This document shows, piece after piece, positions 13,538 to 47,650 of a stretch of DNA of 64,000 nucleotides. The DNA is from a candidate division WWE3 bacterium (GTDB lineage Bacteria; Patescibacteriota; WWE3; UBA101185; UBA10185): positions 459,338-523,337 of the forward strand of contig JBPOHV010000001.1 in assembly GCA_052035175.1 (NCBI GenBank). Reading direction: 5' to 3'. Each line of letters opens with the position of its first letter. The first letter of the stretch is position 1. The notes beneath the pieces were generated by a model. It searched no databases, was not told the origin of the DNA, and saw nothing but the letters and a program-made list of their open reading frames with translations. A program made the position numbers and the translations under genes.

Positions 13538-13995
13538 AGAGTAATTCTTGAGTCATCGGTCTCGTTTAGTATGTGTGTTTGATCTGGGGACACCATAAAA
13601 GTGCTAGAAATTTCAAACTTTTGAGTTGATCCATCAGAATAATCGATTTCAATATAATCGCCTTTATTTACTTTGTTTAAGCTTCCCAAAAGGTTTGGTC
13701 GATTGTGACCATAGAACACACTATTTCCTTGTGCACCTGGGATAGGCGTATTCGACAAGTATGAAACGCCATCATCTGTATATTCCCACGTATGTCCTTT
13801 GTATGTACTTGGGAAAATGTTTAGGTCGATATTTACTGCAGGTATTTTTATTCTTTTTGGTAAAACATTTTTTTGTAAAGGTGTGTTTGCTGTTTCTGCG
13901 ATTATAGGTCTATTTCTCACATAGTAAATGTTGCCAATAGTATATATTGAATACGAACAAACCAGTAAAAGGGCTATAGTAATAGCTTTTTTCAT
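13477..13995 (-). CDS. Sortase (class E/A-like transpeptidase), membrane anchored
   Basis: N-terminal TM, a His-containing VFYGHN segment, and the catalytic TLxTC box ITLYTCVGF with a downstream Arg. Confidence 0.75.
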   Translation of the reverse strand: MKKAITIALLLVCSYSIYTIGNIYYVRNRPIIAETANTPLQKNVLPKRIKIPAVNIDLNIFPSTYKGHTWEYTDDGVSYLSNTPIPGAQGNSVFYGHNRPNLLGSLNKVNKGDYIEIDYSDGSTQKFEISSTFMVSPDQTHILNETDDSRITLYTCVGFLDLKRWVVVASKV

Positions 13996-13996
13996 T

Positions 13997-14647: not shown

Positions 14648-14737
14648 ATAAAACATTGGCAGGTTGGGGCAGATAGTACCACAATGACCTATAAAGATCA
14701 ACTATAAGGAAGGCAGCACATACTTGGTTTGATATAG

Positions 14738-15982
14738 TTAGTTATTTGTGAAGTAATCGATAAGTGAGATTAACTTTTCGTGAAGTTTGTATAATAGGTT
14801 CTTTTTTTGCTTTATTAATTCGATTGTTATGTCTGCTTGTTCTGTTGTTGGAATATTTATACTTTTGTCGAAATAACCATCTGCCTTTATATCTACTTTT
14901 GTTGTGTTCTCTATGTATGTTATTTCAAACTTACCTGTATCGTTTGCAATAAATAATTTATTTCCAACATACAATTTGGCAAACGGTACACTTTTGCCCA
15001 AACTATTTATTATCTGACCTGTTAATACTTTTGGCGTGTAAAATTTTGTTAGCGTCGTCACAGCTTTTCGCGGTGTGCTATCTGGTTCCCATAATGCCGT
15101 AGAACTATCTATGTTTGACCAATAATTCATTCCAATAACGTTGTTGTTGTTCATCAATAAACTTAGTGCTTTTTCTAACCAGTCTTGTTGTTCCTGCTGT
15201 GTAAATTCTCCGTGTATGTCTGGAATTGGCGCGCCAAATTCTCCCAATATAATTTTTCCTCCACTTGATATCGCCAATTGTGTTAAATCGGCCGAAAGCT
15301 TTTCTGGAGTTTCAACGTAATGATCGACTGCTACTATTCCATCTAGTGCTTTTGTTGTTGGTTTATCCATTGTAGCTAAAGCAACATCGCCATTCATAGA
15401 TAAATAATTAGACGCGACATTTTTGTTTATTTTTTTGAACGCTGCTTTTGTAATCTTATATTCTTGTATCAAAAAATCTCGATGACCTTGTATATCACCT
15501 GTATGCCTTGGATCTCCAGGCCCGCCATTCTCACATTCTGGACATGCCGAAAAGACATCTCCATCTTCAAAAAGATCTTGATGTGACAAAATAAATTGTT
15601 CAGTCATTTCCAAATGCGTTTCGCGCGTTATACGTGGGTATTTGAACCATCCTTCCCAGCCGCTCCAGTTACCACGAAACCAAACATGCAAGTTATACTT
15701 TCTGGCTGTAGCAACCCATCTTTTTAAGAATGGTAGAAACTCTTCGTCATAAGGTGTCGCAATACCAATATGCGTAGCGCCAGTTTTTGCTATTTCATTT
15801 ACTTGTTGATCTATTATTGCGTCAAAAGTTGGATTGTCTAGTTTTTCGCGCGCTTTATCTCGAGAATATTTCATAGTATCAATTGATTGAAAGTCCCAAA
15901 GTGATTTTGCGGATATATGATGTGGTATCAAACTAATACACACAAATATTAATACAGAAAATAATTTTTTAGTGTTTTTCAT
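14738..15982 (-). CDS. Secreted TIM-barrel glycoside hydrolase (GH5/GH113-like)
   Basis: Signal peptide, then CPECENGG (acid/base-like) and ILGEFGAP (nucleophile-like GEFG) motifs. Confidence 0.5.
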   Translation of the reverse strand: MKNTKKLFSVLIFVCISLIPHHISAKSLWDFQSIDTMKYSRDKAREKLDNPTFDAIIDQQVNEIAKTGATHIGIATPYDEEFLPFLKRWVATARKYNLHVWFRGNWSGWEGWFKYPRITRETHLEMTEQFILSHQDLFEDGDVFSACPECENGGPGDPRHTGDIQGHRDFLIQEYKITKAAFKKINKNVASNYLSMNGDVALATMDKPTTKALDGIVAVDHYVETPEKLSADLTQLAISSGGKIILGEFGAPIPDIHGEFTQQEQQDWLEKALSLLMNNNNVIGMNYWSNIDSSTALWEPDSTPRKAVTTLTKFYTPKVLTGQIINSLGKSVPFAKLYVGNKLFIANDTGKFEITYIENTTKVDIKADGYFDKSINIPTTEQADITIELIKQKKNLLYKLHEKLISLIDYFTNN

Positions 15983-17673
15983 TTTTGATTGTTAAATGTA
16001 GCATCTGTATTTAGTTGACCAATATATTCTGGTTTTATTTCATAAATATCTGCAAAAGGGAATTTACCAACCAAATTATATTTTTCTAGACCTGTTGTTT
16101 CTTTTACTGCTTTCCATGTCAGGTCGTTATCGTCATATGTCCTCATGATAATCCAACGTGCCCACCTATCTGGTAAGGCTGTAGCGCTTTGCCAGTATAA
16201 GCCAGTACCTTCATGTATAAACCGTTTCATAGGCAAACCAGATGAAAATATAATTGCGTCGTGCGAAGCTGCTGATATTAAAACAAAGCCTTTTTCGTTT
16301 AATGCATGGTCATACAACCAACCACTTACTTCAGAGACATTTTTTTGGCTAGATCCAACTCGTGCATCGTCTATCGTTACCGCGTCAAAACTTACAAATT
16401 GAAAAAACGTAACTAAAAAGAGCAAGCCAGCTATTGCTATTCGCATGTTTACTGCTTTATCAAATAAGTATCCAATGAAAATAGCAATAGCTGGCATAAG
16501 CATTATTCCGTATCTTACATTAAACCAAGTATCACCAGATAAGCCTTGTATAAACAAAACAGAGTGCCCCATGTATAAAGCTAATATATTAAAAAAGAAT
16601 GGAGCTATAAGTGCTGTTGAAGCATACTTAACATACTTGGTTATTCTTTTATCAAACCATGAGTATACCAATCCTAATACTCCCAAGATTACGTGCATAG
16701 CCCCAGAGTTGTAGACTAACGCGTATATATAGAACTTTACAGATAACCATAAGTTATGCTTGGTTTGCAATACTCCTGCGTTTTGTAGTTGGTCTTGTTG
16801 TGCTTTGGCTGAAAATGGTCCAAAAGCAAAATATAGCGGGTCTTTAAATATCAAAGCGTTCCACAATAACCATAGCATTATGCCAAAAGAAGCGAGCGTA
16901 CCGAACAAAACCAAAGTTCCTTCAGTTTGGAAATAATTGTTTTTTAATTGGTGAAAAACCCTTTGTAATCTTTGTTTAAGTGGTGCATGTTCTATGTCGG
17001 CATATTTGAAAAGAGTATGTATTGCTACCAAAGCACAACCCCACGCAAGCAAAAACCAACCATCATATCTAGCTAATGTAGAAAACATTATCCACATAGC
17101 AGACTTAATTAAATGCAAGATCTTGTCATTTTTATGCCAAAGCATCAACTCGTATGCTGCTATTGTCATAGTCGCAATTAATAACAATTCGGTCATAGCG
17201 GTTGATTGCAGATAAAGTACATTTAAATTCGTCACCCATACGATTACGCCTGCAAGCTTTCCGACCATGCTTATATTCAAAGCATCTAGATATTTGTAGA
17301 TAATCATGCCTGTGACAACAAAAGAAATCATCGAGATGATTGCTCCTGCCAACCCAGAGTGCCACATAAAATCATTCCAGATTGTAGGTACCATTAGTAA
17401 ATGTGGTAACGGTAGCCAGACAGACCCCAACTGCGCAAGTCCTGGTTTCAAACCTTCTACTACGCGCCTACCAATATCCAAGTGTGAGCGAGCATCATTA
17501 TAAGCGAGACCTAAATGGTTGTTGTAATAATATATAAATTGAGAAATGGATATCGTAGAGAGTGCGATAAACAAAAATATAGAAATGTGTTTTTGCAAAA
17601 AATATACTAGCCGGTCAAACCAGTTTGTGGGGATATTGAGGCTAATAATGTATTTCTCGTGTTCATTTCTCAT
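15979..17673 (-). CDS. Polytopic membrane protein, GT-C-fold glycosyltransferase-like (ArnT/PMT-like), with a C-terminal soluble domain
   Basis: At least 10 predicted TM helices followed by a ~150-aa hydrophilic tail. Paralogous architecture to the next gene. Confidence 0.45.
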   Translation of the reverse strand: MRNEHEKYIISLNIPTNWFDRLVYFLQKHISIFLFIALSTISISQFIYYYNNHLGLAYNDARSHLDIGRRVVEGLKPGLAQLGSVWLPLPHLLMVPTIWNDFMWHSGLAGAIISMISFVVTGMIIYKYLDALNISMVGKLAGVIVWVTNLNVLYLQSTAMTELLLIATMTIAAYELMLWHKNDKILHLIKSAMWIMFSTLARYDGWFLLAWGCALVAIHTLFKYADIEHAPLKQRLQRVFHQLKNNYFQTEGTLVLFGTLASFGIMLWLLWNALIFKDPLYFAFGPFSAKAQQDQLQNAGVLQTKHNLWLSVKFYIYALVYNSGAMHVILGVLGLVYSWFDKRITKYVKYASTALIAPFFFNILALYMGHSVLFIQGLSGDTWFNVRYGIMLMPAIAIFIGYLFDKAVNMRIAIAGLLFLVTFFQFVSFDAVTIDDARVGSSQKNVSEVSGWLYDHALNEKGFVLISAASHDAIIFSSGLPMKRFIHEGTGLYWQSATALPDRWARWIIMRTYDDNDLTWKAVKETTGLEKYNLVGKFPFADIYEIKPEYIGQLNTDATFNNQK

Positions 17674-19390
17674 GATCAGGCTTTACAAATTTTAATAGTA
17701 TCAAAACAAAAGTGGATGATATCAAACCGTATATTATCCAGAAATATTGCCAAGCGGTTATATGTTTGTGTGCAAAGCTTACAAACCCAGCAGATTTTGA
17801 AATGTTACTACTAAGTGTATCCAAATTTCTTTGCACTGTATACCTTTGTACTTTATTTGTAGTCTTTTCTAAAGCGAGAATTTCCACTTTTGGAGGCATA
17901 GCATTAGATGTTAACGCTCCTGCAGTATTAATATATGCAGATACATCAAACAAAATCACAAAAGCAATTACAAATAAAAAGCTTTTTTTATAGTTTGAAA
18001 GCGCTATCGCTAAATAAATAGCCAATATACCAAATACAGGAACTAAGTACCTTGGGCCAAACGCCCATCCACCCCAAACATCACCCCACATGGCATAAAG
18101 ACATACCAAGAGGCCAGAAACTCCTAGGAGTAGCGTGTGCATAACTTTATTAGATTTTTGTAAGAAGGCCATTCCATAAAAAGCCAAGATCATTACAGGT
18201 GCAAAAAATATAAATCCGCGATCTGGACTCAAAAATAAGATATACAGCCCATTTAACATTTCTCGCGTTTCAAAGTAATGCAAAGTATTTCTACTTTCGG
18301 TCTCTTGTTCAACGTCAAGATTTTCTTTTATAACAGCCTTGTTTTCGTCTTTGAATACTATTGGGTTACCTTGTTTGTCAAATTCCTGTACTTGTACAAC
18401 CGTACCAGCCAACTGCAAAGGATTTCCGTAAGATGTTTTATTAAACCAAAAGAAGAACGCAATAGCAGGAATTGCAGTGACTACACACAGAGTATATAGA
18501 GGTCTAAAAACCATTTTTAATTTATTGGTCTCTTTAGATATTTTTAGTACTTGTGTAACTGCATATATAGCAAAAGGTAGTAAAATTATCGCATTTGGGT
18601 AGTCTACTGAAATTGCAAGAAAGTAGGTAAAAGAAATAACCAACAATGTTTTATAGTTATCCCACTTCACAATCGCGTACAGACTTATCAAAATTAATAG
18701 TAATGTAACGTGGTGTTGATAAAGGCTTACTCCATATGCAAAAGCATTGGTGCCGAATAAAAAAGCCAGTGCAGCCAATACAGCTGCATATTTATTTGCT
18801 CCTAATTTTTTTGAAATCTCTATAATCAGTAAAACATTTATAAAAGCAATAAAAGTAATTACAGCATAAGTTCCCAATTGTGCTGCACCCAAAGCTTTAC
18901 CTATAACATATCCTGGAATTATTAAAAAAGAAACGCCTGGTGCAAATAACGAAACAAAGTTCCCATTAAAAAATCCCAAGTCGGGTGCAGCCAAACGCGC
19001 GACATCTTTTGAAAAATACAGTGTGTGATCTTCGACGACCGAATACATAAGCGCATAGCGTCCTCTGTCTGGGGATAGCTCGAGCGGGCCATCTTCTTTC
19101 CAGTTACTAGTGTTGAGTTCGGTTATAGAAGGATTTCCCACCATGCCTTTTATGCTTAGTGCAAGTATTGCAATTACTAAGATAAAGGCTATATATAGTG
19201 TTTTTTCTTTTATGCTTATTACTTTTTGAACCAATTGCTTAAGTAAAGGTGCAGCTATTTTGGCATTTATATCGAGGTTAGATATTTTGTTGTATATATA
19301 CTTTACGTTAAGCATTTTAGATATTCTGATATTTATTTTTAATAACAAAATTTTCGAAATCGACTTCATCGTATCTAATAATGTCTCCAA
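17663..19390 (-). CDS. GT-C-fold membrane glycosyltransferase (ArnT/PMT family-like). An alternative start at 19315 would avoid overlap with the SDR gene.
   Basis: Many TM helices, a large extracytoplasmic loop, and a C-terminal WGDVWGGWAFGPRYLVPV segment typical of PMT_2/ArnT-like enzymes. Confidence 0.5.
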   Translation of the reverse strand: METLLDTMKSISKILLLKINIRISKMLNVKYIYNKISNLDINAKIAAPLLKQLVQKVISIKEKTLYIAFILVIAILALSIKGMVGNPSITELNTSNWKEDGPLELSPDRGRYALMYSVVEDHTLYFSKDVARLAAPDLGFFNGNFVSLFAPGVSFLIIPGYVIGKALGAAQLGTYAVITFIAFINVLLIIEISKKLGANKYAAVLAALAFLFGTNAFAYGVSLYQHHVTLLLILISLYAIVKWDNYKTLLVISFTYFLAISVDYPNAIILLPFAIYAVTQVLKISKETNKLKMVFRPLYTLCVVTAIPAIAFFFWFNKTSYGNPLQLAGTVVQVQEFDKQGNPIVFKDENKAVIKENLDVEQETESRNTLHYFETREMLNGLYILFLSPDRGFIFFAPVMILAFYGMAFLQKSNKVMHTLLLGVSGLLVCLYAMWGDVWGGWAFGPRYLVPVFGILAIYLAIALSNYKKSFLFVIAFVILFDVSAYINTAGALTSNAMPPKVEILALEKTTNKVQRYTVQRNLDTLSSNISKSAGFVSFAHKHITAWQYFWIIYGLISSTFVLILLKFVKPDHEK

Positions 19391-20063
19391 TTATTTCTGC
19401 AACCCGATATGGGGACAAGTGATTGCCTGCTTTACTAGATACAAAATTTGTCATAGCAGATGGTAAGACGGCAATTACTCTTATGCCAAAGGGTTTTAAC
19501 TCATTTTTAAGAACATTAGTCATGCCTTCGACTGCATATTTTGTACTAGCATACAAAGATTTGTAAGGTGAGATCATACTATTGCGGGAGATTTTAGAAC
19601 CAATGTTTATTATAGTTCCTTGTTTTTGCTCTTTCATGTATTCTGCTGCATACTTTGATGTCAAAAAGTTTGATTTGATATTAACCGCAAGATATTCGTC
19701 TATGATATCTGAGGTAATCTCGCTTAGTTGTTTGTCGTATGTTACCGCGGCATTATTTATCAAAACATCTATTTTGCCGTATTCTTTGTGTATTTGATCA
19801 AAAATTGCGGCCACTTCGCTTTCATTTGTTATATCGCAAACCAGTGTATGCAACTTGTCTTGATTAGTAGCCGCAGATCTTGATAATGCGATAACATTAG
19901 CACCAGAATTATGCATATACTCTACAAGACACTTACCCAACCCCGTACTTGTACCAGTAATCACGATGATTTTTTCTGACAATTTGTTACTCGTCGGAAC
20001 CTCTAGCAGTTTTTGTTTGACAAGCAGATGAATTGTACGTTTTATATCCTTTAAAATTGTCAT
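19317..20063 (-). CDS. Short-chain dehydrogenase/reductase (SDR) family oxidoreductase
   Basis: ITGTSTGLG is the TGxxxGxG motif. Also NNAAV and the catalytic Ser...YASTK. Confidence 0.8.
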   Translation of the reverse strand: MTILKDIKRTIHLLVKQKLLEVPTSNKLSEKIIVITGTSTGLGKCLVEYMHNSGANVIALSRSAATNQDKLHTLVCDITNESEVAAIFDQIHKEYGKIDVLINNAAVTYDKQLSEITSDIIDEYLAVNIKSNFLTSKYAAEYMKEQKQGTIINIGSKISRNSMISPYKSLYASTKYAVEGMTNVLKNELKPFGIRVIAVLPSAMTNFVSSKAGNHLSPYRVAEIIGDIIRYDEVDFENFVIKNKYQNI

Positions 20064-20064
20064 A

Positions 20065-21237
20065 TTAAATTTTACTCATATAAAAATCGTGCATTCTTTT
20101 TGCTACTTCTTCCCATGTGTTTCTTAAGCCAAATTCTCGACTATTATTTTCAATTTGCTTAATTTCATCAGAGTTAGAATGCTCTAATACATAGTTAATC
20201 TTTTTTGCTAATGCATCACTATCTTTTGTTTCTATAAGATAGCCAGTTTCATTATCTTTGATTAAATAGGGGAGTGCGGTATTGTTTGCTACGATGCAGA
20301 CTTTTCCTTGACTTAAACCTTCGTGAACCACATTACAAAAGCTTTCCCACAAAGCCATATGCACCATCATTTGAGAGTGTTTGATCAAATAGTATTTATC
20401 GATGCCTTTTGAGATACCATAAAATATGACTCTATCTTCTACGCCCAAGCTTTTTGCCAAGTTGATTAACATTGTTTTATAACTTTCTTCTCCTACCGGA
20501 CCTACCAATAAGTATTTTACGTCTTTTGGTAATTTTGTAAGAGCCTTTATAGTTGTTTCATTATTTTTAATTTTGTAGATACGGCCAATCTGAATAATGT
20601 ATCTTCCAAATTGGTTTACGTGAGTCTTTACCAATGCACTTGCTTTGGCATCTACATCTTCAAAAGCTTCGTTTTCGAGCCCATTGTCGATAACTACTAC
20701 TTTTTCTTTGTTTACTCCTTTTGCAACAATTTGTTCTTTTTCCCATTCTGATACAGCCCTCACGCCATCAACAACAAGGTTTATCATCAATGTACCTAAA
20801 GTATAATGATATGTGGATTTCACTAGTCGTGTTGGAAGATCATATATAGACCATTCAGGATTAAACCCACCGTGTGGTGTTAGAAAGAGCTTAAATTTCT
20901 TTTTACCAAATATTTTTAGTATCAATGCAAAAGCCATTATGGCGAAATGAGGTAATATGTTGAAATTGTGCAAACATACAAAGTCTGCCTTTTGCCAATC
21001 TATTTTAGGCCAATAACCCATAGGCCCATAATTATATCTATTAACATTAATACCACTTATGATTTCTTCAGACTTCAGCACGTTTTTTTCGGTCAACGTA
21101 TCTGTAGTCGTATGCATGATTATGTCCCAGCCGCCTTTTACAAGCACTTTGTAAGTTTCATGTGTATTTACCTCAATTCCAGCTGTTACAGGAATAAAGT
21201 ATTTTTCTATAACATGTACAATCTTTTTTTCTGACAT
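20065..21237 (-). CDS. GT4-family (GT-B) glycosyltransferase
   Basis: C-terminal EX7E-type motif HMALWESFCNVVHEGLSQGKVCIVANNTALPYLIKDNETGYLIE. Confidence 0.7.
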   Translation of the reverse strand: MSEKKIVHVIEKYFIPVTAGIEVNTHETYKVLVKGGWDIIMHTTTDTLTEKNVLKSEEIISGINVNRYNYGPMGYWPKIDWQKADFVCLHNFNILPHFAIMAFALILKIFGKKKFKLFLTPHGGFNPEWSIYDLPTRLVKSTYHYTLGTLMINLVVDGVRAVSEWEKEQIVAKGVNKEKVVVIDNGLENEAFEDVDAKASALVKTHVNQFGRYIIQIGRIYKIKNNETTIKALTKLPKDVKYLLVGPVGEESYKTMLINLAKSLGVEDRVIFYGISKGIDKYYLIKHSQMMVHMALWESFCNVVHEGLSQGKVCIVANNTALPYLIKDNETGYLIETKDSDALAKKINYVLEHSNSDEIKQIENNSREFGLRNTWEEVAKRMHDFYMSKI

Positions 21238-21977
21238 TATGCTTTCCTCGCTTTTATAGAAACTATAACTGGGAAGTATTGATCATTGTAATCAAGTTCT
21301 TTTTTATCCATTTCTTCTAACGCCATTCCAACCCAGAAACATTGGCCTGCCAATGCATTTCCATATGTTTTAACTTCGAGTTCATCATGTACGAAGTATT
21401 TGTTAAAAATATATTCACCAGAAGCACGTGTCCATCTCCAATGATGGTGGTCGATATTCCAGACTGGTCCCAAGCATGGCATTGTAACAAGTATATATCC
21501 ACCTTTCTTCAAGATTCTATGACATTCTTTAATAGCTGCAGGGTAGTCATCGATCATTACAAAAGTTTGAGTGATTATCAAACAATCATATGTTTCATCA
21601 GCAATGTCTTTTAAGTCTCTTAAGTCTCCATAAAGATTGGCAACTTTATTATTTGTGTTTATATCCAAAGCATCTGCCCTAGAAACTTTTTCTTTGCCGT
21701 ATTTTTGTATATAAGCTGTGTCTGTAATTTCCAAGCAAGCTCCCTTTACTACATCAGCATTTTTTTCCATAAATTGTTCTATATAATATCGATCTATTGG
21801 TGTGCCTCTATCGTATCCGTAGACAGTGCTTAGCGGTTCTACGTTTTTAGTGTCTTCTACTCTTTTTGGTAATGGTGCGATGTAATAATTACTCAATGGT
21901 CTTAGTGTTTTCACTACAACATTTTGCACTTTTCGTACTATTTTATAAACTATTGAATTAGGATCTTTTTTTATCAT
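21237..21977 (-). CDS. Class I SAM-dependent methyltransferase (tentative)
   Basis: ACLEITDT...DCLIITQ...ILKKGGYILVT has Rossmann MTase-like spacing. Confidence 0.5.
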   Translation of the reverse strand: MIKKDPNSIVYKIVRKVQNVVVKTLRPLSNYYIAPLPKRVEDTKNVEPLSTVYGYDRGTPIDRYYIEQFMEKNADVVKGACLEITDTAYIQKYGKEKVSRADALDINTNNKVANLYGDLRDLKDIADETYDCLIITQTFVMIDDYPAAIKECHRILKKGGYILVTMPCLGPVWNIDHHHWRWTRASGEYIFNKYFVHDELEVKTYGNALAGQCFWVGMALEEMDKKELDYNDQYFPVIVSIKARKA

Positions 21978-22795
21978 AATATTGATCTTTCTATTATTTG
22001 TTTTTTTACAAATTTCTTAATAAACTTTCTAAACTTTATTACAGATGGAGATATTGTCCATAAGACTTCATTTATCCCGTGCGAACTATCTATTCCCACT
22101 CTTGGAATAGTTAGTAAGTCAGTGTTGGATGTTAGCGCCGCGTCATCCATACTAAATGCCGCTGTATACCCAGCTGATCTAATATATTTCAACACGTCGC
22201 TTGTATAATTTCCCTTTGGATAAGCAAAATAGTCTATGTTTATACCTAGGTCCGCCTGAAGCTTTTCTTTTGCTGTGATTACCTCTTCTTTTATCTGTGC
22301 TTTTGAAATACCAGAAAAGTTGATATGAGTCAAACTATGAGCCCCTACAGACCAGCCATTTCTATATAGCATTTTAATGTCATCGATAGATAAAAAGTCT
22401 TTTTTTGTATTCAAAGCTAGTTCGCCAAAATTATAATTTTCAGTATCAGCTATTACAAATATGCATGGTTTTATTTTCAATTGTTCCAAAAATTGCTCCG
22501 TTCGCAATATGTTTTTATATCCGTCGTCAAACGTTAGAACTACAGATTTTGTCATCGGCTTATTTGTTTGGAGATTTTCTAGCAGTTCGTTTACAGTTAT
22601 GAAGTTATATCCGTGCATTAAAAGTTTATTTATGTGTAATATGAATAGTTCTGGTTTTGTACTAAATCTCCATGCATCATTTGAAATACTGTGGTAACAC
22701 AAAACAACTGCGCTATTCTTTGTCTGCAGTATGTTGTCGATACTAAATAACGTAAAATAAATTATTTTTCTAATTAGTATAAAGAAGTTTTTCAT
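21974..22795 (-). CDS. Polysaccharide deacetylase (NodB homology domain, CE4) with an N-terminal membrane anchor (ORF-track start 22831)
   Basis: VVLTFDDGYKN (the TFDDG motif) and WSVGAHSLTHINFS (the His motif). Confidence 0.75.
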   Translation of the reverse strand: MKNFFILIRKIIYFTLFSIDNILQTKNSAVVLCYHSISNDAWRFSTKPELFILHINKLLMHGYNFITVNELLENLQTNKPMTKSVVLTFDDGYKNILRTEQFLEQLKIKPCIFVIADTENYNFGELALNTKKDFLSIDDIKMLYRNGWSVGAHSLTHINFSGISKAQIKEEVITAKEKLQADLGINIDYFAYPKGNYTSDVLKYIRSAGYTAAFSMDDAALTSNTDLLTIPRVGIDSSHGINEVLWTISPSVIKFRKFIKKFVKKQIIERSIL

Positions 22796-23721
22796 ATGTT
22801 TACTGTCTTTGACGAATTTGCCAATGTCCATGTGTCTTTATTGATTTTTTCAGGTTTGATTGCACTATACAGATAACAATATAAGACTAAGAAAGGATAT
22901 ATAGTGCTGTAAATAGGACTTTTTAGAAATACCTTTATTCCAGATATTGCTAGTTTTACCCATGGCCATTTAGTAAGTCTATGTATCAATTGCTTAGGTA
23001 AATCGTCATAAAATATCTTGTTAGAATTATAAAAGCGTATTTCTTGTTTTAAATGATCGTATAACGTTGCAGGTAATGCATACCAGCATTCTGTATCTTT
23101 TACAAAACTAAACTTAAACCCATTAGCGTGACAAAAAATATACGAATACATATCTTCTGCAAAGCTCTTTTTGAATTCAAATTTAAGTACAAATGCTTTG
23201 GATAAGGCTCTAATAGTGCCGTGGCAATTGTACCAATTATCACCGTCATTTAGATCTTCAAACGTTTCTCTTTTTATTTCGTTCCCAATAGCGAGAACTT
23301 TTTCTATAAATGTGCGTGGCTTGCTTTCTAAAAGGCGACAAGATACTAGATCGGCATGATCTTCACTTATTGGCTTGATCATTTTTTGTAAGCATTTGTT
23401 ATCTGTAATTCTAATGTCACCATTTAACAACAATACTATGTCAGCATTTTTATAGTGCATCAATTCATTTGATCTTGCGGCTAAGCCTTTGTTTTCTTTA
23501 TTGTCTACAACGATGATTTTGTCATTACTGACACTTTGCGCTTGCGCTACCGTATTATCGGTAGAACCATCAGAAAGAACAACTATGTTTATTAATTCAA
23601 ATGTTGATATGTCTTGTGCAACTAGGTCTGTTAAAAGATTTTTTATATTTGATCCTTCGTTGTAAGCTGGTATTCCGATAAGTACTTTTGGTTTATCCAT
23701 ATTATTTGTTTGAGTTACCAA
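22792..23721 (-). CDS. GT2-family (GT-A) glycosyltransferase
   Basis: IGIPAYNEGSNI and VVLSDGSTDNT motifs. Confidence 0.75.
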   Translation of the reverse strand: MVTQTNNMDKPKVLIGIPAYNEGSNIKNLLTDLVAQDISTFELINIVVLSDGSTDNTVAQAQSVSNDKIIVVDNKENKGLAARSNELMHYKNADIVLLLNGDIRITDNKCLQKMIKPISEDHADLVSCRLLESKPRTFIEKVLAIGNEIKRETFEDLNDGDNWYNCHGTIRALSKAFVLKFEFKKSFAEDMYSYIFCHANGFKFSFVKDTECWYALPATLYDHLKQEIRFYNSNKIFYDDLPKQLIHRLTKWPWVKLAISGIKVFLKSPIYSTIYPFLVLYCYLYSAIKPEKINKDTWTLANSSKTVNI

Positions 23722-26221
23722 CTTTATCTGTCAAATTTAGTTTCCATACAGAATCTTCTATATTAGACGTTTGAATACTGAGTGTTTTTCGTATTTCGTG
23801 TAAAAATTTATTTGCTGTCATTTCCCAGCTAAAATTATTTGCCCACAATTTACCAGTCTTACCAAATGTAGTTCTTAATTCATGATCAGATATCAATTTA
23901 TCAAGGGCTTCTGCTGTTTGGTCTACATTTGCCCATTCGACCAGCAATCCAGTTTTTTCATGATTTACCGATTCTTTGAGTCCGGGAACATTTGTTGCAA
24001 CTACTGGAGTTTCACACATATTTGCTTCTATAACAGTAATTCCCCAACCTTCTACCATTGATAATTGTACTGCTATCCACGATTTGGTAAACAGTTGTGC
24101 CTTTGTTTTTTCAGTAACATTACCTTTGAAAACCACATGTTTTTGAAGTCCTAATTGGTTGACTTGTGCTTTTAGTGTTTTTTCGTGTTCTCCGCTTCCG
24201 GCTATTATCAGCTTGATATTAGTATATTTCTCTTTTAATTTATGAATAGCGTGAATTGCTGTATCTACGCCTTTATACTCGCGCAGACGTCCAAGATATA
24301 AAACGGTTGGCGTTGACGTCTTTTTCACTTTTGCTGGTTTGATTTCGACGCCAGGGTACATAATTTCTATGTTTTGATTTTTCCCAAGACCTATTTTGAG
24401 CATTTCTTCTCTTGTAGAATCTGATACAGCTAACATTTTGATTTTTCTGTATAAGAACGGCATCAATATACCTTCTAAAAACATAGAAAGTTGCTTGGTA
24501 GGGAATGGTAATTCTTTTTTAAACATTTCTTGATGTACTTGATGAACAAGACATATCTTTGGTTTTGTTACAAATAGAGGAGTAAAGAAAGGTACACCTT
24601 TGGGAATATCGATGACTACATCAAAGTTTTTTCTAAACTTGATTACGTAATATATAAATCCCCAGATTGCTACAGTATAAATCCCGCCGCGTCTAAAAAC
24701 TTTAACGCCATCTACTTCTTCATAATGCTCGCTTTGTTGATCATTTCCGCAAAAGAATGTTACATCATGCCCTTGTTTCACAAAATTTTTAGCAACTTGA
24801 TGTATATATATTTCTGCACCGCCACCCCATACGTGTTTTGTATCGTACCAGTTATATATTAATATACGGAGCTTATCAGGGTTTAGTTTACGTGGTTTGG
24901 GAAGAGGCGAGAACAACCCATAAAAAGCTACTAGGTTATTTAACGCTATTTCTATATGAGTATTAAACAAATGCAAAAGTAGTGCCGTACTCAAATTTAC
25001 AAATCCTAGTACAGCCATAAGTATGACGAAGCTTTCTAAATCGGTATTAAAATGTCCAAGCACATATATTTGTACTAAAGCTAGTAAAAAGCTAGTAATT
25101 GGGAACAAAGATTTGTCTTTAATTTGATAGTAACCAAAGATTGTAGAGGCCAACGAAAACAAAAGTACTGCAAAGCCATAAATAGGTAAAAGCTCAGTTA
25201 CATTTGAGATCTTATCTCCAAATAAAAACGCTGCAGTGTGATTGCCAAAGAGTCCTACTGCTATATATACACAAAAGCTACATAACGCAGAAATGAAGAA
25301 CAAAGTATAAAACTTGTTAGAACTATCTACCTTTGAGCCTTCATCTTTACTAACTAACGGTAAGATAAATTGACTAAAAAGGCCTCCTATCGAAAATATC
25401 ATTTTGCCGACCAAAGCTACTAATGCGTATTCACCTGCTTCAATTGGAGATAAATAGTGTTTTGCTAAAAGCACATCAAAGCTTAAAAAAGCTATAATCG
25501 AGAAATTATACACAAATGAAGACGTATAGAATTTTGTTGGGAATTTGATGTTGTCCGATTTAGCTTGTGCTGTTTGTTTTCTAACCATGAATTTTACAGA
25601 GAGATATGCTATCGACAAAGCTACAAACAGTGATGTAGGTATAGCCAAATAAGCAAATTCGCCATAGCCAGTTACGACTAAGATATATGCAACGAGAAGC
25701 TTACAAATAGCTTCTACAGTTATCAAAATTCCAACAGCAGTAAACTTCAAATTACCGTTTATAAAGCCAGTATCTATAGAAGCTAAGCTTGCTATGAAAA
25801 TACAAGGTGTAAACAAAAGTATAGGTAGTAGTGAGTCGGTTTTAAAATAGTTCATCAAGAAAGGGGAGGCAACGATCCATACAACACTGAACAATCCAGA
25901 AATCAAAAAGATATTTTTGCGAGTTTCATACCAAAACGTTGTAAATGGTTTTTTATATTTTCCAAAATAAAAAGCAGACTCGTGTATAACTGTACGGTTC
26001 AAAGCATTTAGCGGTATCGATAATAAAAATAAGAAGCTACCGATCAAACTAATCAATCCAAAATCTTCGATTGACACAGCTCGCGTTAAAAAAGCGTTAT
26101 AGGCGTAGTTGAGAAAATTTGCAACTACACCAGAGGCTACAAGAACCATTCCAGATGTTGCATAAGCTTTTACCGAGGAAAAAGCTTTGTTGATTAGTGC
26201 ATAAATTTTGTTTAGCACCAT
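23702..26221 (-). CDS. Fusion protein: N-terminal Wzx/MOP-type polysaccharide flippase-like polytopic domain plus C-terminal GT4 glycosyltransferase
   Basis: The first ~430 aa contain more than 12 TM helices of the polysaccharide-biosynthesis-protein type. The last ~380 aa are GT-B, with LAVSDSTREEM...EGWGITVIEANMCETPVVATNVPGLKESVNHEKTGLLV. Confidence 0.65.
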   Translation of the reverse strand: MVLNKIYALINKAFSSVKAYATSGMVLVASGVVANFLNYAYNAFLTRAVSIEDFGLISLIGSFLFLLSIPLNALNRTVIHESAFYFGKYKKPFTTFWYETRKNIFLISGLFSVVWIVASPFLMNYFKTDSLLPILLFTPCIFIASLASIDTGFINGNLKFTAVGILITVEAICKLLVAYILVVTGYGEFAYLAIPTSLFVALSIAYLSVKFMVRKQTAQAKSDNIKFPTKFYTSSFVYNFSIIAFLSFDVLLAKHYLSPIEAGEYALVALVGKMIFSIGGLFSQFILPLVSKDEGSKVDSSNKFYTLFFISALCSFCVYIAVGLFGNHTAAFLFGDKISNVTELLPIYGFAVLLFSLASTIFGYYQIKDKSLFPITSFLLALVQIYVLGHFNTDLESFVILMAVLGFVNLSTALLLHLFNTHIEIALNNLVAFYGLFSPLPKPRKLNPDKLRILIYNWYDTKHVWGGGAEIYIHQVAKNFVKQGHDVTFFCGNDQQSEHYEEVDGVKVFRRGGIYTVAIWGFIYYVIKFRKNFDVVIDIPKGVPFFTPLFVTKPKICLVHQVHQEMFKKELPFPTKQLSMFLEGILMPFLYRKIKMLAVSDSTREEMLKIGLGKNQNIEIMYPGVEIKPAKVKKTSTPTVLYLGRLREYKGVDTAIHAIHKLKEKYTNIKLIIAGSGEHEKTLKAQVNQLGLQKHVVFKGNVTEKTKAQLFTKSWIAVQLSMVEGWGITVIEANMCETPVVATNVPGLKESVNHEKTGLLVEWANVDQTAEALDKLISDHELRTTFGKTGKLWANNFSWEMTANKFLHEIRKTLSIQTSNIEDSVWKLNLTDKVGNSNK

Positions 26222-26222
26222 A

Positions 26223-28382
26223 TCAGCCGCCGATCTTGGCAGGAACTTGGTTAGCAGCCTTTTTAAGATGGAGACCGTGTTGTGTTTTTTCCCAGTGATG
26301 TGGTTTAAATAACAATTGATAAAATGCCATTACTGCAGCAATACTCATCAAAAACCAATAAAAGGGTACTAAAAAGACGTATTTCATGAGTTCCCAGTGG
26401 CCTCTTTTTGCAAGGCCTATCATATAGTTGTACAAGTATAAAAAGTTGCCGAATACCAGTGAAATAGCCCCCATATAAAACACAGTTGTTGGATAAAAAG
26501 ATTCAATAGTTGGTCCTACATATTTATATAAAACAAAATATGAAATAGTCATCGCCCACCAGATAGGATTAATCAAAATGAATATAATTCTCAAACCAAT
26601 TATCAACTGGAATAGTAATGCATGTGCGCCGTTTGTTCTAAAGAAGTTTATTGGGTCGCGCATGTGTACCTGATATGTTTGCATGTAGCCTTTGAGCCAG
26701 CGTGATCTTTGGCGGATCCAGTTCTTTGTATTGCTGTTTGCTTCTTCTAGTGTTACAGAATCAATAATTGCAGTTTTGTATCCTTCTTTAAATAGCCTTA
26801 CTCCCAAATCACAATCTTCTGTTACATTAAATGGATCCCAACCTTCAAGCTCTCGTAATTTCTGAGTTTTGAAATGATTGCTTGTGCCACCTAAAGGTAT
26901 ATAAGTGTCGATGCTTTGTAAACCTGGTAAAACTACATCAAACCACAAAGAATATTCCGCAGTAAATAAGCGTGTTAATAAATTGTGGTGTGGGTTGTAA
27001 TAATTGAGTTTTGCCTGGACGCAGACTGTTTTTTCACCAAGCTGTGTGAACGCAAGGTATGCTTTTTTTAACTGCATAGGCTCAGTTTTATCTTCAGCGT
27101 CATATATTACTATATATTCACCTTTTGCTTGTAACAACCCGTAGTTGCACGCTTTTGGTTTTGTTTTTGGTGCTGAATGAGGAGTAACTACTATTCTAAA
27201 GTAATCGGGTAAACTCATACTTTGTGCCACATGTATAGTTTTAGCATCGTCTTCTTCAAGTAACAAAATGACATCAAGTTTATTTTTTGGCCAATCAATA
27301 TTGTTGATAGCTTCGATGAAATGAGGCAAAACTTCGGATTCTTTATATAAAGGACACAAGATCGTATAAACCGGTAATGTTTTGTCGTTTATACTGGCTA
27401 ATTGTGCGTCTGAAAAAGCCAGTTCTGGCGGAAAATAGAGGCTTTTTGATATAACGAATACGCTGAAAATGACATCTGCAAAATAAATAGCAGTTAAAAA
27501 AGCAATAAGGCCAATAAGTGTGTACATGTAATTTGTATAGAGTCCATAACCTAATGCAAGTATTCCAGATACTATTATAATTTTTTGCCATCTTTGAAAT
27601 GTGTATATAGCCGATTTTGAATGATGTCTATTTGTGTGAGTTACATATTTCTTTTTCCTATAAATAACGCCAGATTCAATGTTATAGACTCTTCTATTCT
27701 TAAACCTAGTTTTAAAAGCGCACTTAGCTATATCAAAACCTGTTTTTAGGATACCAACCTTTGATGCGCCTTCTTCTCGAGCTTCAAACTCTATGTCAAC
27801 TTTGTCGATTTTGTATCCCAATTCTTGTGCCGCGAATAAAAGTGGGATATCAAATGTCCATGGTGTTACGAGAGACTTGTCTATTTCTATTCCTATACTT
27901 TTTCTAAAAATCTTGAGACCCGATTGAATGTCTGTATTTATACCAGCCAGCAATCTACCAAAAACAAATACCCCCAATCTAGACAATATTCTGCGTAGAA
28001 GAGGTGCTTTAAAGACTTTTCTGTTTGCTACAACTACTCCTATTGTTTCGTCTTGCATCTTGGCATACATCTCTGGTAGGTATTTGGGTGAGTACTGCAA
28101 ATCACCGTCTATAAAAGCTATCAATTTGGCATCAGATACAGATATACATTCAAGTAGCGTATACCCTTTGCCAGGTTTACCTTGCTTTTCGTGTAATAAT
28201 ATTTGATTCTGATCTTTAATTTTGTGTATTTCTTTGAGTGTGTTGTCGGTAGATTTATCGACGCCAAAAAGTATCTTATAGTCGATATTTAGTGGGTCAA
28301 GTGCACTTTTTATACCAGCCACCATTTTGGCAATATTCTTTTCTTCGTTTTTGACTGGTACTATTATGTCTAAGTCTCTCAT
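26223..28382 (-). CDS. Tandem GT2 fusion: polyprenyl-phosphate glycosyltransferase-like (DPM1/GtrB-like) domain, TM segment, then a processive synthase-type GT2 with a QxxRW motif and C-terminal TMs
   Basis: The N-terminal domain has IIVPVKNEEKNI...FIDGDLQY. The second domain has LCPLYKESE...YDAEDKTEP...NWIRQRSRWLKGY (the Q/RxxRW box). It is flanked by multiple TM helices. Confidence 0.65.
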   Translation of the reverse strand: MRDLDIIVPVKNEEKNIAKMVAGIKSALDPLNIDYKILFGVDKSTDNTLKEIHKIKDQNQILLHEKQGKPGKGYTLLECISVSDAKLIAFIDGDLQYSPKYLPEMYAKMQDETIGVVVANRKVFKAPLLRRILSRLGVFVFGRLLAGINTDIQSGLKIFRKSIGIEIDKSLVTPWTFDIPLLFAAQELGYKIDKVDIEFEAREEGASKVGILKTGFDIAKCAFKTRFKNRRVYNIESGVIYRKKKYVTHTNRHHSKSAIYTFQRWQKIIIVSGILALGYGLYTNYMYTLIGLIAFLTAIYFADVIFSVFVISKSLYFPPELAFSDAQLASINDKTLPVYTILCPLYKESEVLPHFIEAINNIDWPKNKLDVILLLEEDDAKTIHVAQSMSLPDYFRIVVTPHSAPKTKPKACNYGLLQAKGEYIVIYDAEDKTEPMQLKKAYLAFTQLGEKTVCVQAKLNYYNPHHNLLTRLFTAEYSLWFDVVLPGLQSIDTYIPLGGTSNHFKTQKLRELEGWDPFNVTEDCDLGVRLFKEGYKTAIIDSVTLEEANSNTKNWIRQRSRWLKGYMQTYQVHMRDPINFFRTNGAHALLFQLIIGLRIIFILINPIWWAMTISYFVLYKYVGPTIESFYPTTVFYMGAISLVFGNFLYLYNYMIGLAKRGHWELMKYVFLVPFYWFLMSIAAVMAFYQLLFKPHHWEKTQHGLHLKKAANQVPAKIGG

Positions 28383-28511
28383 ATTTCATATAAACCCAAC
28401 TGCAGTGCCCTGGCCGGATAGTAAAGATGATTATACCCGATTATCTGGCTATTTCAACTTTTATGGTATATGTTGCCAGTATATAGTAAAGTATTTAATT
28501 ATGGTGCTTAT

Positions 28512-29186
28512 ATGAGACTATTACTTGTAGAAGACGAAGTTAAATTGTCTAGCAACCTTAAAAAGCTATTAAAAGGGGAGTCCTATAGTATTGATGTCTC
28601 TGATACAGGGGCTTATGCACTTGAACTAGCTAATACGACAAATTATGACGTAATCATTCTAGACCTTGGTTTGCTAGATATGTCTGGCTTGGAGGTTTGT
28701 AAAAAGTTTAGAGAGCAGTTAATAACTTCGCCTATACTTATACTTACTGCGAGAGATGATGTTTTTTCTAAAGTAAAAGCATTGGATTCTGGGGCAGATG
28801 ACTATTTGGTGAAGCCTTTTGAATTTAATGAACTTACCGCACGCTTACGTGCTTTGCTTCGTAGAAATACGGCAGTACTAGATACTATATATAGTATTGA
28901 TTCTTTAGAGATATATCCAGATAAAAAATTGTGTGTTCGCGAAGGTCGTGACGTTGCGTTGAGTGCAAAAGAATACGCATTGCTAGAGTATTTGATACGA
29001 AATAAAGACAAAGTAATCTCAAAAAGCCAGTTGATCGATCATGTATGGGATGACGGTTTGGATCCATTTTCTAATGTTGTCGACGTATATATTGGTTATG
29101 TACGCAATAAAATAGATAAGGCATTTCCAGACGCCAACCCATTGGTACATACAATAAAGGGATTAGGTTATAAACTATCGTTATGA
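28512..29186 (+). CDS. OmpR-family response regulator (ORF-track start 28470)
   Basis: A receiver domain MRLLLVEDE...DVIILDLGLLDMSG...LTAR...LVKPF plus a winged-helix effector domain. It is divergent from the glycan locus. Confidence 0.85.
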   Translation: MRLLLVEDEVKLSSNLKKLLKGESYSIDVSDTGAYALELANTTNYDVIILDLGLLDMSGLEVCKKFREQLITSPILILTARDDVFSKVKALDSGADDYLVKPFEFNELTARLRALLRRNTAVLDTIYSIDSLEIYPDKKLCVREGRDVALSAKEYALLEYLIRNKDKVISKSQLIDHVWDDGLDPFSNVVDVYIGYVRNKIDKAFPDANPLVHTIKGLGYKLSL

Positions 29187-30160
29187 CAGAATTTGAAAAA
29201 GCTCGTGCAAAGCTAACCTTATATTATTTTTTACTTAGTTTCGTGTTGTTAACTTTTTTTAGCATTATGGCTATAGGAGCAGAGCGTACTGCCTTCAAGA
29301 AAATTACTGATGCACTGAGTAATCCTACCGAAAGACCAGTTTTGACAAAAGTTTTGTCTACAAGTTTGAATGAGTTTGATAGCGATTTTATAAAAACTTT
29401 ACTTATTTTTGATCTGGCGTCGTTAATAGTTGCTATGTGGTTTGGGTATTATATGAGCGGCCAGACATTGCGTCCAATAGCTGAAATGTTGACAAGGCAC
29501 GAAGAATTTTCTCAAGACGTTTCGCATGAACTTAGAACACCACTTACAAATATTTCTCTAGAGTTAGAAGTTTTGAACCGTCAAAGTTTGGATGTTGAAA
29601 CAAAAAAGTCTTTATCTAGTATTACGAGCGAAGTAACACGGATGCAAAGATTGATAAATGGGCTTTTGTCCTTGGTACATATGCAAAACCCTTATGACAA
29701 ATCGATTTTCAAACCTGTCGATCTTGTAGATATAAGCATAAAGGCATTTGATACATTCAAGCGTTTAGCAGAAGAAAAAAATATTACACTTCATTTTAAA
29801 TATTCAAAAAAACCTATTTTAGTTACAGGAATTTCAGATCAAGTATATCAATTGGTTGTGATTCTTTTGGAAAATGCAATTAAATACACAAGTTCACGCG
29901 GCAGCGTTGCGATCAACATATATGCAACCCCAGACAGTGGCATTATAGAAATAACTGATACTGGCGTGGGTATAAAAAAATCTGAGCAGCGTAATATATT
30001 CAAAAGATTTTATAAGGGCGATAAGTCTTTGGGTTTTGGTCTAGGCTTATCGATAGCCCAAAAAATTGTCAAAGATAATAAAGGTAAATTGATATTAGAT
30101 GATACTTATGTCAAAGGGTCAAAATTTGTTGTCAGTTTTGACCTCTTAAGTTCTTCTTAA
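29183..30160 (+). CDS. Sensor histidine kinase (two TMs, HisKA plus HATPase_c)
   Basis: H-box VSHELRTPL, N-box LLENAIKYT, G1 ITDTGVGI, G2 GLGLSIAQ. There is a 4-nt overlap with the regulator. Confidence 0.8.
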   Translation: MTEFEKARAKLTLYYFLLSFVLLTFFSIMAIGAERTAFKKITDALSNPTERPVLTKVLSTSLNEFDSDFIKTLLIFDLASLIVAMWFGYYMSGQTLRPIAEMLTRHEEFSQDVSHELRTPLTNISLELEVLNRQSLDVETKKSLSSITSEVTRMQRLINGLLSLVHMQNPYDKSIFKPVDLVDISIKAFDTFKRLAEEKNITLHFKYSKKPILVTGISDQVYQLVVILLENAIKYTSSRGSVAINIYATPDSGIIEITDTGVGIKKSEQRNIFKRFYKGDKSLGFGLGLSIAQKIVKDNKGKLILDDTYVKGSKFVVSFDLLSSS

Positions 30161-47616: not shown

Positions 47617-47650
47617 AAACCTGATGTCCTGACCATTAGACGATAGGGCC
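47576..47650 (-). tRNA. tRNA-Glu (anticodon UUC) with encoded CCA
   Basis: The minus strand reads GGCCCTA TC GTCT AATGGTCA GGAC A TCAGG TTTTCAT CCTGA TAAC CGGGG TTCGATT CCCCG TAGGGTC A CCA. The cloverleaf folds cleanly. Confidence 0.85.

Follow-up and report, generated by a model that had tools for sequence, protein, structure and literature searches.

A conserved fusion of a Wzx-like flippase domain with a family GT4 glycosyltransferase in Patescibacteria

In Streptococcus pyogenes, GacI and GacJ make GlcNAc linked to the C55 polyprenyl phosphate carrier (C55-P), GacK, a Wzx-family protein with 12 transmembrane (TM) helices, flips the product, and the GT-C enzyme GacL transfers it (PMC9574508). 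In Lactococcus lactis, WpsA and WpsB prime C55-P, WpsC to WpsF extend the glycan in the cytoplasm, and the Wzx-type protein WpsG flips it, after which the GT-C proteins WpsI and WpsJ polymerize the glycan and link it to a rhamnan that is made separately (PMC9574508). Both systems set a precedent for a Wzx-family flippase that works with a GT-A polyprenyl-phosphate-sugar (polyprenyl-P-sugar) synthase, cytoplasmic glycosyltransferases (GTs), and GT-C transferases (PMC9574508). A further described system is Pel, in which PelF polymerizes and export proceeds “via PelD, PelE, PelA_DA and/or PelG” (PMC7112168). Here, we analyze an 839-amino-acid (aa) protein of a candidate division WWE3 bacterium (Patescibacteriota) that joins a Wzx-like domain of the MOP superfamily to a GT4 glycosyltransferase. 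It is encoded in a stretch of 64,000 nucleotides, hereafter the window, corresponding to positions 459,338 to 523,337 of contig JBPOHV010000001.1 (GenBank assembly GCA_052035175.1).

Flippase and GT components are normally separate, low-abundance membrane proteins that are difficult to study jointly. How Wzx proteins recognize their cargo and whether flipping is physically coupled to the cytoplasmic GTs are open questions. Patescibacteria, members of the candidate phyla radiation (CPR), are organisms with tiny genomes that grow on other cells and whose surface chemistry is almost uncharacterized. We infer that the 839-aa protein is a bifunctional inner-membrane enzyme and the downstream half of a four-module Patescibacterial assembly line, GT2a-GT2b-MOP-GT4; what we say about function, for the protein as for its locus, is predicted from sequence. 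Every part comes from a known family, whereas neither the architecture nor the conserved locus seems to have been described. The fusion is visible in databases, since automated JGI annotation names both halves ([quoted passage not shown]). The full-text literature that we searched, with incomplete coverage that leaves absence unproven, held no description of a Wzx-GT fusion or of this CPR locus.

A MOP-type membrane domain and a complete GT4 enzyme in one reading frame

An earlier note on this DNA had placed a Wzx-like flippase and a complete GT4 domain in a single reading frame. This proved correct: the 839-aa open reading frame (ORF; 23702..26221) is single and unbroken, begins with ATG, and lies on the minus strand, which the note had not given. 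The possibility of a frameshift join, also raised there, is excluded because the junction between the two halves is collinear and gap-free in an alignment of 36 homologues with 36 to 45% identity to the window protein. There is no homopolymer tract in the junction DNA, and the identical 839-aa protein is also recorded on an NCBI/Logan contig of 925,229 bp. Together with the recurrence of the same fusion in 80 independent genomes (see below), the gap-free homologues rule out a frameshift, a misassembly, or the read-through of two genes as the origin of the protein, an explanation which has nothing positive in its favor and whose probability we consider practically negligible. We are thus highly confident that the protein is a genuine MOP-GT4 fusion with a cytoplasmic GT4.

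The two halves are connected by a helix that follows TM12, predicted in both AlphaFold2 (AF2) models that we generated and carrying the conserved pattern N-x-x-D-F-x-x-L-F, and by a linker of about 12 to 17 residues from this helix to strand beta-1 of the GT4 domain (“LRILIFNWRD”). The full-length AF2 model reached a pLDDT of 87.8 and a pTM of 0.73; a Foldseek search with it returned no solved chain spanning both halves.

The identity of the N-terminal half was approached through its fold and its relatives. Hydropathy gives 12 hydrophobic spans between residues ~22 and 418. An AF2 model of this domain, built from 43 sequences, had a pLDDT of 92.1 and a pTM of 0.90, and the top 50 PDB entries that Foldseek matched to it were all MOP-superfamily structures (MATE, WzxE, and MurJ), with TM-scores of 0.6 to 0.73 over ~430 to 460 columns. 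The named matches include the lipid III flippase WzxE (9g95, 9g9o, and 9g9m; TMt ~0.69) and the lipid II flippase MurJ (6nc9). By fold search alone, Wzx cannot be told apart from MATE or MurJ. In terms of sequence, the closest standalone relative (P0001; 46% identity) carries PF01943 (Polysacc_synt) and PF13440 (Polysacc_synt_3), three of 10 aligned family members match PF13440 (1.2e-13) and PF01943, and six of 10 standalone representatives match Polysacc_synt, Polysacc_synt_3, or MatE, with three scoring above the gathering cutoff. A 10-sequence homologue profile compared with PDB sequences retrieved no MOP protein, only leaked GT4 columns and orexin-receptor noise. Since the window sequence has no direct hidden Markov model (HMM) match, its assignment to MOP/PST rests on fold plus transitive homology. 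On this basis the domain is best described as a divergent member of the MOP superfamily, by sequence nearest to the PST/Wzx-type branch. The earlier note had allowed that MOP-family similarity might be missing from this half; it is present in the fold and in the PF01943 and PF13440 matches of the homologues.

Applied to the 12 spans, the positive-inside rule counts 25 Lys and Arg residues in the predicted cytoplasmic loops and three in the external loops. This supports an N-in/C-in topology, canonical for MOP proteins, and would place the GT4 domain in the cytoplasm, the site of nucleotide sugars, thereby answering the question of sidedness raised with the original prediction.

The C-terminal half matches Glyco_transf_4 (PF13439; aa 467 to 627; E = 9.9e-14) and Glycos_transf_1 (PF00534; aa 627 to 792; E = 3.6e-47) and is, by sequence, a complete retaining GT-B enzyme of family GT4. 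As foreseen in the earlier note, it has an EX7E motif, the two glutamates of which (E724 and E732) are invariant across the 36 homologues. In Foldseek, the GT4 part matched MshA (3c4q) at a TMt of 0.80 to 0.81 and also BshA, PimA, and PglA. All NCBIfam equivalogs fell far under their cutoffs, e.g., MshA with 102 bits against 462. PelF (NF038011; cutoff, 100 bits) was absent from the 25 best NCBIfam matches of the fused GT4, so that its score must lie below 37 bits.

The two halves are not equally conserved. Mean identity to the homologues is 46% for GT4 against 37% for MOP, with ~49 and 7 invariant positions, respectively. This difference, with a MOP half that has drifted beneath Pfam detection, might indicate that the MOP domain is a nontransporting scaffold which holds GT4 (and GT2b) at fixed stoichiometry, the fusion being a by-product of genome streamlining; that MOP-like domains are also found joined to unrelated partners (a GT2 or an APH-like kinase fold) points in the same direction. 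Wzx proteins are, however, notoriously divergent. Moreover, the complete 12-TM MOP fold has been kept (pLDDT 92), an anchor of 12 helices is costly where one or two would do, and the operon contains no other flippase for GT-C donors. The conserved polar residues of the domain are N35, N38, N42, R47, E170, K174, D249, K254, H255, Y265, and K273, among which the intramembrane charged or polar residues R47, E170, K174, D249, and K273 are 94 to 100% conserved and therefore argue for a working transporter. Such charges would be compatible with the translocation of a polyprenyl-linked glycan. We consider a pure scaffold very improbable.

Upstream GT2 modules and the four-module architecture

Directly upstream of the fusion lies a gene (26223..28382, minus strand) for a 719-aa protein with two halves, GT2a and GT2b. 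Its stop codon ends 1 nucleotide before the ATG of the MOP-GT4 ORF, in a different frame (...GGC TGA t ATG; 26221 to 26225). Either a natural fission or an indel of one base in the assembly may account for the split between GT2b and MOP at this point. The best NCBIfam matches of GT2a are PgfS (5e-14), AglJ, ArnC, a Dol-P-hexose transferase, and PpgS. GT2b matches the Pfam families Glyco_tranf_2_3 and Glyco_trans_2_3 and, as its best NCBIfam match, PgaC/IcaA (1.8e-24), aligned from model position 7 to 395 (389 of 407) at 86 bits, compared with an equivalog cutoff of 422 bits. It carries the motifs DAED428, TED521, and QRSRW558 (QxxRW), and hydropathy places TM peaks at about residues 276 and 297 before the catalytic domain and 596, 642, and 677 after it. 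GT2b is thus a GT2 resembling processive synthases, its processivity being predicted only.

A search with the full protein returned ~50 clusters covering 86 to 99% of the window protein (93 to 99% for nearly all), those with names belonging to Patescibacteria, Saccharimonadales, and Gottesmanbacteria. The homologues are Patescibacteria, with the greatest similarity to lineages of the Microgenomates type. In an exhaustive search of representatives with a MOP profile, 2,986 were retrieved at E ≤ 1e-30; the profile (578 positions) had taken in some GT4 columns, and the retrieved hits were reclassified with separate domain queries. The top 150 included 146 new MOP-family representatives, of which 55 have the MOP-GT4 fusion. 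Classification of 204 retrieved proteins with the window’s own domains as queries gave 97 with MOP alone, 61 MOP-GT4, 33 GT2b-MOP-GT4, and nine GT2a-GT2b-MOP-GT4 proteins of 1,530 to 1,611 aa, together with a few odd architectures. In two other proteins, P0098 (8e-38) and P0005, the MOP domain is fused instead to a GT2 of the GT2_309 type, another pathway-level fusion, and in P0004, P0056, and P0053 an APH/kinase-like domain (PF01636) follows the MOP or MOP-GT4 part, reminiscent of the pseudokinase domain carried by mycobacterial MviN/MurJ.

The gene neighborhood was examined in 80 species-representative genome loci with the MOP-GT4 fusion (35 to 46% identity), retrieved with peptide patterns of the GT4 domain and ranked by their match over the full length, from a scan that yielded 454 relatives, for not all of which the fusion was confirmed. 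Modules were read as stop-to-stop frames. All four modules share one frame in 41 loci and three do so in 21, while MOP-GT4 stands alone, as in the window, in 18; GT2b is therefore in frame with MOP-GT4 in 62 of the 80 loci and GT2a in 41. A GT2a/GT2b gene adjoins in most of the 18 loci with MOP-GT4 only. Since the window likewise encodes GT2a and GT2b in the adjacent upstream gene, and these modules are in frame with MOP-GT4 in most related loci, the window is a 2+2 split version of what its relatives usually encode as one protein of ~1,300 to 1,600 aa. In fused proteins, simple hydropathy detects two to five TM peaks between QxxRW and the start of MOP. An even TM number in this segment is compatible with the data if the first hydrophobic stretch, of ~32 residues, is a hairpin; the two proteins whose linkers are long have two extra peaks.

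The survey of homologues suggested in the earlier note thus finds the same fusion in at least 80 species-representative Patescibacteria genomes. The premise that flippases and cytoplasmic GT4s are normally separate proteins holds in model organisms. It fails in this lineage, where the fusion is recurrent and usually part of a three- or four-module protein that includes the upstream GT2.

Many of the third-party-annotation (TPA) records of metagenome-assembled genomes with the locus (L003, L005, L007, and others) are titled “uncultured Gammaproteobacteria” or “Pseudomonadales,” and a few Weeksellaceae, Verrucomicrobiia, or Bdellovibrionales. These titles are probably placeholders or labels of misbinned sequences rather than real occurrences outside the CPR, and they were not used for taxonomy.

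The downstream locus and a candidate pathway

Downstream of the fusion, the operon continues on the same strand with eight genes (Table 1), whose recurrence was counted over the 59 loci in which the downstream sequence extends for 9 kb or more.

TABLE 1 Modules of the GT2a-GT2b and MOP-GT4 proteins and genes downstream of them, with positions in the window
Feature	Position	Strand	Basis or description	Recurrence
GT2a, N-terminal GT-A domain (aa 1-235 of 719-aa protein)	27678..28382	-	Polyprenyl-P-sugar-synthase-like by NCBIfam	
GT2b, membrane-embedded processive-synthase-like GT2 (aa 236-719 of 719-aa protein)	26223..27677	-	Pfam, NCBIfam, motifs	
MOP/PST (Wzx-like) domain, aa 1-419	24965..26221	-	Short cytoplasmic N terminus, then 12 TM helices, aa ~22-418	
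Post-TM12 helix (aa 420-435) and linker (aa 436-451)	24869..24964	-	Both AF2 models, alignment	
Cytoplasmic retaining GT-B domain, family GT4, aa 452-822	23756..24868	-	Pfam, Foldseek	
EX7E motif E724-G-W-G-I-T-V-I-E732	24026..24052	-	Translation and alignment	
GT2_309, GT2, variable part (1-6 copies elsewhere)	22792..23721	-	Glycos_transf_2, E 3.2e-25	54/59 loci
CE4 polysaccharide deacetylase, N-terminal membrane anchor	21974..22831	-	Polysacc_deac_1, E 1.4e-22	22/59 loci
S-adenosylmethionine (SAM)-dependent methyltransferase, variable part	21237..21977	-	Methyltransf_11, Methyltransf_23	7/59 loci
Second, free-standing GT4, variable part	20065..21237	-	Glycos_transf_1, E 3.2e-28	15/59 loci
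Short-chain dehydrogenase/reductase, possibly sugar-modifying, variable part	19317..20063	-	adh_short, E 2.5e-43	2/59 loci
mem575, polytopic membrane protein, probable GT-C, core partner	17663..19390	-	PMT_2 in orthologues	55/59 loci
mem564, polytopic membrane protein, possible second GT-C, core partner	15979..17673	-		55/59 loci
sec414, secreted, C-terminal CarboxypepD_reg, often last gene of locus	14738..15982	-		34/59 loci

With mem575 and mem564 almost always present and the other genes of uneven recurrence, the locus combines a constant machinery with a variable tailoring set. The fused GT4 is its invariant GT; the free GT2 and GT4 genes differ in number and kind. The free-standing GT4 of the window has an Agl16-like NCBIfam match (6e-51) under the cutoff, and the best NCBIfam matches of the deacetylase are IcaB (3.3e-18) and PgaB. 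As to mem575, five of 31 orthologues match PMT_2 (best, 2.1e-8) and two of 31 are TMEM260-like, while NCBIfam points to the LA_3751/3752 putative-glycosyltransferase subfamily (4.2e-9). Its neighbor mem564 (~540 to 564 aa) is 58 to 66% identical across Patescibacteria lineages, far above the genes around it, and is found in at least 2,552 clusters, all listed members of which are “hypothetical” and lack a Pfam domain. It has no Pfam or NCBIfam family and shows an invariant YNDARSH motif after TM1; hhalign relates it to mem575 with 46% probability (E = 2e-4). mem564 may thus be a major uncharacterized envelope protein of the CPR, possibly a GT-C. Profiles of mem575, mem564, and sec414 retrieved nothing useful from PDB sequences. 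CarboxypepD_reg was detected in 19 of 28 sec414 orthologues and Glyco_hydro_cc in two of the 28 (0.0035).

The 3′ end of the operon (13477 to 14701) also holds a gene for a secreted Asp/Gly-rich protein of 234 aa and, directly downstream of it, a sortase gene (13477 to 13995, minus strand). The 234-aa protein, which has a hydrophobic segment followed by KKKD at its C terminus, is a possible substrate of the sortase. At the other end, divergent from the glycan operon, are genes for an OmpR-type response regulator and a histidine kinase (28470 to 30160, plus strand). Two-component genes were found in only one of the 80 related loci (L069), as a histidine kinase alone, located ~6 kb upstream in the opposite orientation; the regulatory arrangement seen here is therefore probably local.

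The earlier note had concluded that the fusion couples the last sugar addition to export, which implies a classical Wzx/Wzy context: the fused GT4 would add the last sugar to a repeat unit on undecaprenyl diphosphate (Und-PP), and the Wzx-like domain would flip it at once, so that finished units only are exported. The MOP/PST fold and family fit this picture, as do the cytoplasmic GT4 on a very short tether to the transporter and a variable GT content that recalls O-antigen and capsule loci. However, the expected context was not seen. The operon genes, at 13.4 to 28.4 kb, have no match to a phosphoglycosyltransferase (PGT; Bac_transf or Glycos_transf_4), Wzy_C, or Wzz, although an initiating PGT of the Bac_transf or MraY/WecA type could sit elsewhere in the genome; the only primer candidate in the operon is a polyprenyl-P-sugar-synthase-like GT2, accompanied by a putative, PMT_2-like GT-C. 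Nor does the conservation of one fused GT4 among varying GTs point specifically to the final addition. That the last sugar is the one coupled to export is plausible, yet not favored over the first or any other conserved step, because an invariant fused GT4 fits any of them, e.g., the first extension of a lipid-linked primer. Altogether, we regard a Wzx/Wzy-type pathway as quite unlikely.

The absence of PGT, Wzy, and Wzz from the operon, with a polyprenyl-P-sugar-synthase-like GT2 and putative GT-C-type enzymes in their place, leads us to prefer a monophosphate-linked pathway of the Gac/Wps type. GT-C enzymes need a lipid-linked (polyprenyl-P) donor on the outer face. As the operon is fully tiled by the genes described above and includes no GtrA-type flippase (there is no GtrA, PelD, or PelE family match among its genes), the MOP domain is its only flippase candidate for the GT-C donors. 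Starting from the observed ORF, folds, topology, catalytic motifs, synteny, and conservation of the fusion, we tentatively propose, at a little short of even confidence, a covalently fused Gac/Wps-type multicomponent transmembrane glycosylation pathway. A GT2 would load the first sugar onto polyprenyl phosphate at the inner leaflet. The tethered GT4, the variable free GT2 and GT4 enzymes, and the methyltransferase would then extend the lipid-linked glycan beside the cytoplasmic entrance of the MOP domain, with the tethered GT4 providing the conserved extension step near that entrance. The MOP domain would flip the lipid-linked product, and mem575 and mem564, as GT-C-type enzymes, would polymerize it and/or transfer it to an extracytoplasmic acceptor, perhaps a beta-glycan that GT2b makes and exports and that the secreted enzymes trim or de-N-acetylate. 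The carrier lipid, the sequence of steps, the flipped species, and the acceptor in this scheme are all postulated.

Several points weigh against this proposal. The NCBIfam scores of GT2a, 25 to 52 bits against cutoffs of 325 to 529, are all subthreshold, and GT2a was not detected in roughly one-quarter of the loci. On the transporter side, residues 1 to 450 of the window protein gave zero Pfam, NCBIfam, or PDB-sequence matches even at E ≤ 10. The fusion rate of 80/80 among the loci is partly a selection effect, owing to the retrieval by GT4 patterns and the full-length ranking. The GT-C status of mem564 is weak (three of 31 orthologues with a weak PMT_2 match [1.5e-4] and one with a PMT match), and that the N-terminal domain of sec414 may be a glycoside-hydrolase-like barrel is a very weak suggestion. 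Lastly, it is speculative to have GT2b build the acceptor backbone. There is no characterized case of a processive synthase joined to a flippase of the Wzx type, and the true logic may differ.

The same parts could also be arranged in a simpler, GacK-like way, in which the MOP domain would flip a polyprenyl-P-monosaccharide supplied by GT2a or GT2_309 to the GT-C enzymes. GT4 would then have a separate job, e.g., priming or extending the GT2b polymer or making a glycolipid anchor, and the fusion would reflect coassembly instead of a direct transfer of substrate between the domains. The resemblance of GT2a to polyprenyl-P-monosaccharide synthases is in line with this, and so is the PMT_2-type match in mem575 orthologues, as GT-C enzymes of this type typically use monosaccharide donors. 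GT2b-MOP-GT4 is, in addition, the most constant fused core, suggesting that GT4 may serve the synthase. GacK, itself of the Wzx family, is the proposed flippase of C55-P-GlcNAc (PMC9574508). This arrangement, however, leaves the many variable cytoplasmic GTs without a role and does not explain why GT4, rather than GT2a, always sits directly on the C terminus of MOP. We judge it unlikely, if worth serious consideration.

The presence of a CE4 deacetylase and of a possible secreted hydrolase brings Pel to mind, which pairs the GT4 PelF with the polytopic PelG, a CE4 deacetylase, and a hydrolase. By this analogy, the fused GT4 would be a PelF-like processive polymerase and MOP a PelG-like conduit, making up a single-chain synthase whose product, an alpha-linked exopolysaccharide, would then be processed by the deacetylase and the hydrolase-like protein. 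The family matches speak otherwise. Neither the window domain (E ≤ 10) nor 20 family members matched the PelG family of Pfam, the latter matching Polysacc_synt, Polysacc_synt_3, or MatE instead, and PelF stays below 37 bits, against its cutoff of 100, for the fused GT4. Equivalents of PelD (the c-di-GMP receptor) or PelE are missing among the operon genes, the deacetylase is present in only 22 of the 59 loci, and neither the conserved GT-C-type proteins nor GT2b as a second synthase would be explained. A Pel-like synthase is in our view improbable.

The most far-reaching reading that we consider is a single-chain hybrid assembly line, present in many Patescibacteria, in which GT2b makes a synthase-dependent backbone while a side chain is primed by GT2a, extended by GT4, and flipped by MOP, the two being joined outside the membrane by the two GT-C-type proteins. 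We hold this reading with considerable doubt. If true, it would be a new way to build a major envelope polymer, could represent a CPR counterpart of secondary cell-wall polymers (teichoic acids and rhamnose polysaccharides), and would offer a natural case of physical coupling between glycosyltransfer and flipping.

Regardless of the exact pathway, the short conserved linker and the confidently predicted structure make the fusion a tractable single-chain target for cryo-electron microscopy or reconstitution. The locus is among the more widely conserved envelope gene clusters of Patescibacteria, and its variable GTs beside a constant machinery suggest a diversifying surface glycan, maybe for host attachment or phage recognition. 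A note of caution is that fusions of consecutive pathway enzymes are common.

Other parts of the window encode putative surface proteins and a recombinase. A 1,214-aa protein (32514 to 36158, plus strand) with a PQQ-type beta-propeller and repeated Big_7 Ig-like domains is a putative large surface protein. A 1,949-aa protein (50628 to 56477, minus strand) has fn3, Laminin_G, and purple-acid-phosphatase-N-like Ig domains and is probably a giant surface or adhesin-like protein; its block has a GC content of 0.41 to 0.43, compared with ~0.35, and a strongly negative GC skew of -0.30 to -0.32. The region 45904 to 47650 holds, on the plus strand, the gene for a large serine recombinase of 570 aa with Resolvase and Recombinase domains; its 3′ end overlaps with an oppositely oriented tRNA gene (47579 to 47650), which may mark the boundary of an integrated element.

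Comparison with known systems

Compared with Gac (GacI/J/K/L) and Wps (WpsA to WpsJ), the locus has the same parts list in terms of predicted roles: a candidate GT-A enzyme for loading polyprenyl-P, cytoplasmic GTs for extension, a 12-TM Wzx-family flippase domain, and one or two candidate GT-C proteins, with conserved machinery and variable GTs in both cases. The components of Gac and Wps are, however, separate proteins, whereas up to four are contained in one polypeptide here. Their acceptor is an ABC-transporter-dependent rhamnan, in place of which a processive-synthase-like GT2 is found inside the same protein, and no GacJ/WpsB-like activator was identified in our locus.

With Wzx flippases (E. 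coli WzxE; PF01943 and PF13440) the window domain shares the 12 TM helices, the N-in/C-in topology, and the MOP fold, with its two lobes of six helices. It differs in being below all HMM detection, in being fused to GT4, and in its relatives to two GT2 modules as well, and in having an operon without Wzy, Wzz, and PGT partners.

PelG is a member of the MOP clan, and the Pel system (PelF, PelG, and PelA) shows the same obligate pairing of a cytoplasmic GT4 with a polytopic inner-membrane protein, alongside a CE4 deacetylase and, possibly here, a hydrolase. In contrast, the window has no PelG or PelF family matches and no PelD or PelE but contains putative GT-C proteins and a second synthase; GT4 and membrane protein are separate in Pel and fused here.

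GT2b has the DxD, TED, and QxxRW motifs and the flanking TM helices of PgaC/IcaA, BcsA, NodC, and the chitin and hyaluronan synthases and shares with PgaC/IcaA-type systems a CE4 deacetylase partner. Unlike these synthases, it is without PgaA/B/D or Bcs accessory genes and is fused to MOP and GT4 in its relatives, an association of a processive GT2 synthase with a MOP-GT4 fusion for which we found no description in the literature searched.

A parallel for the fusion itself is MviN/MurJ of Mycobacterium tuberculosis, a MOP flippase with a C-terminal pseudokinase domain. Both proteins are of the MOP-flippase type and carry a fused cytoplasmic domain, which in MviN is regulatory and in the window protein would be a catalytic GT of the same pathway.

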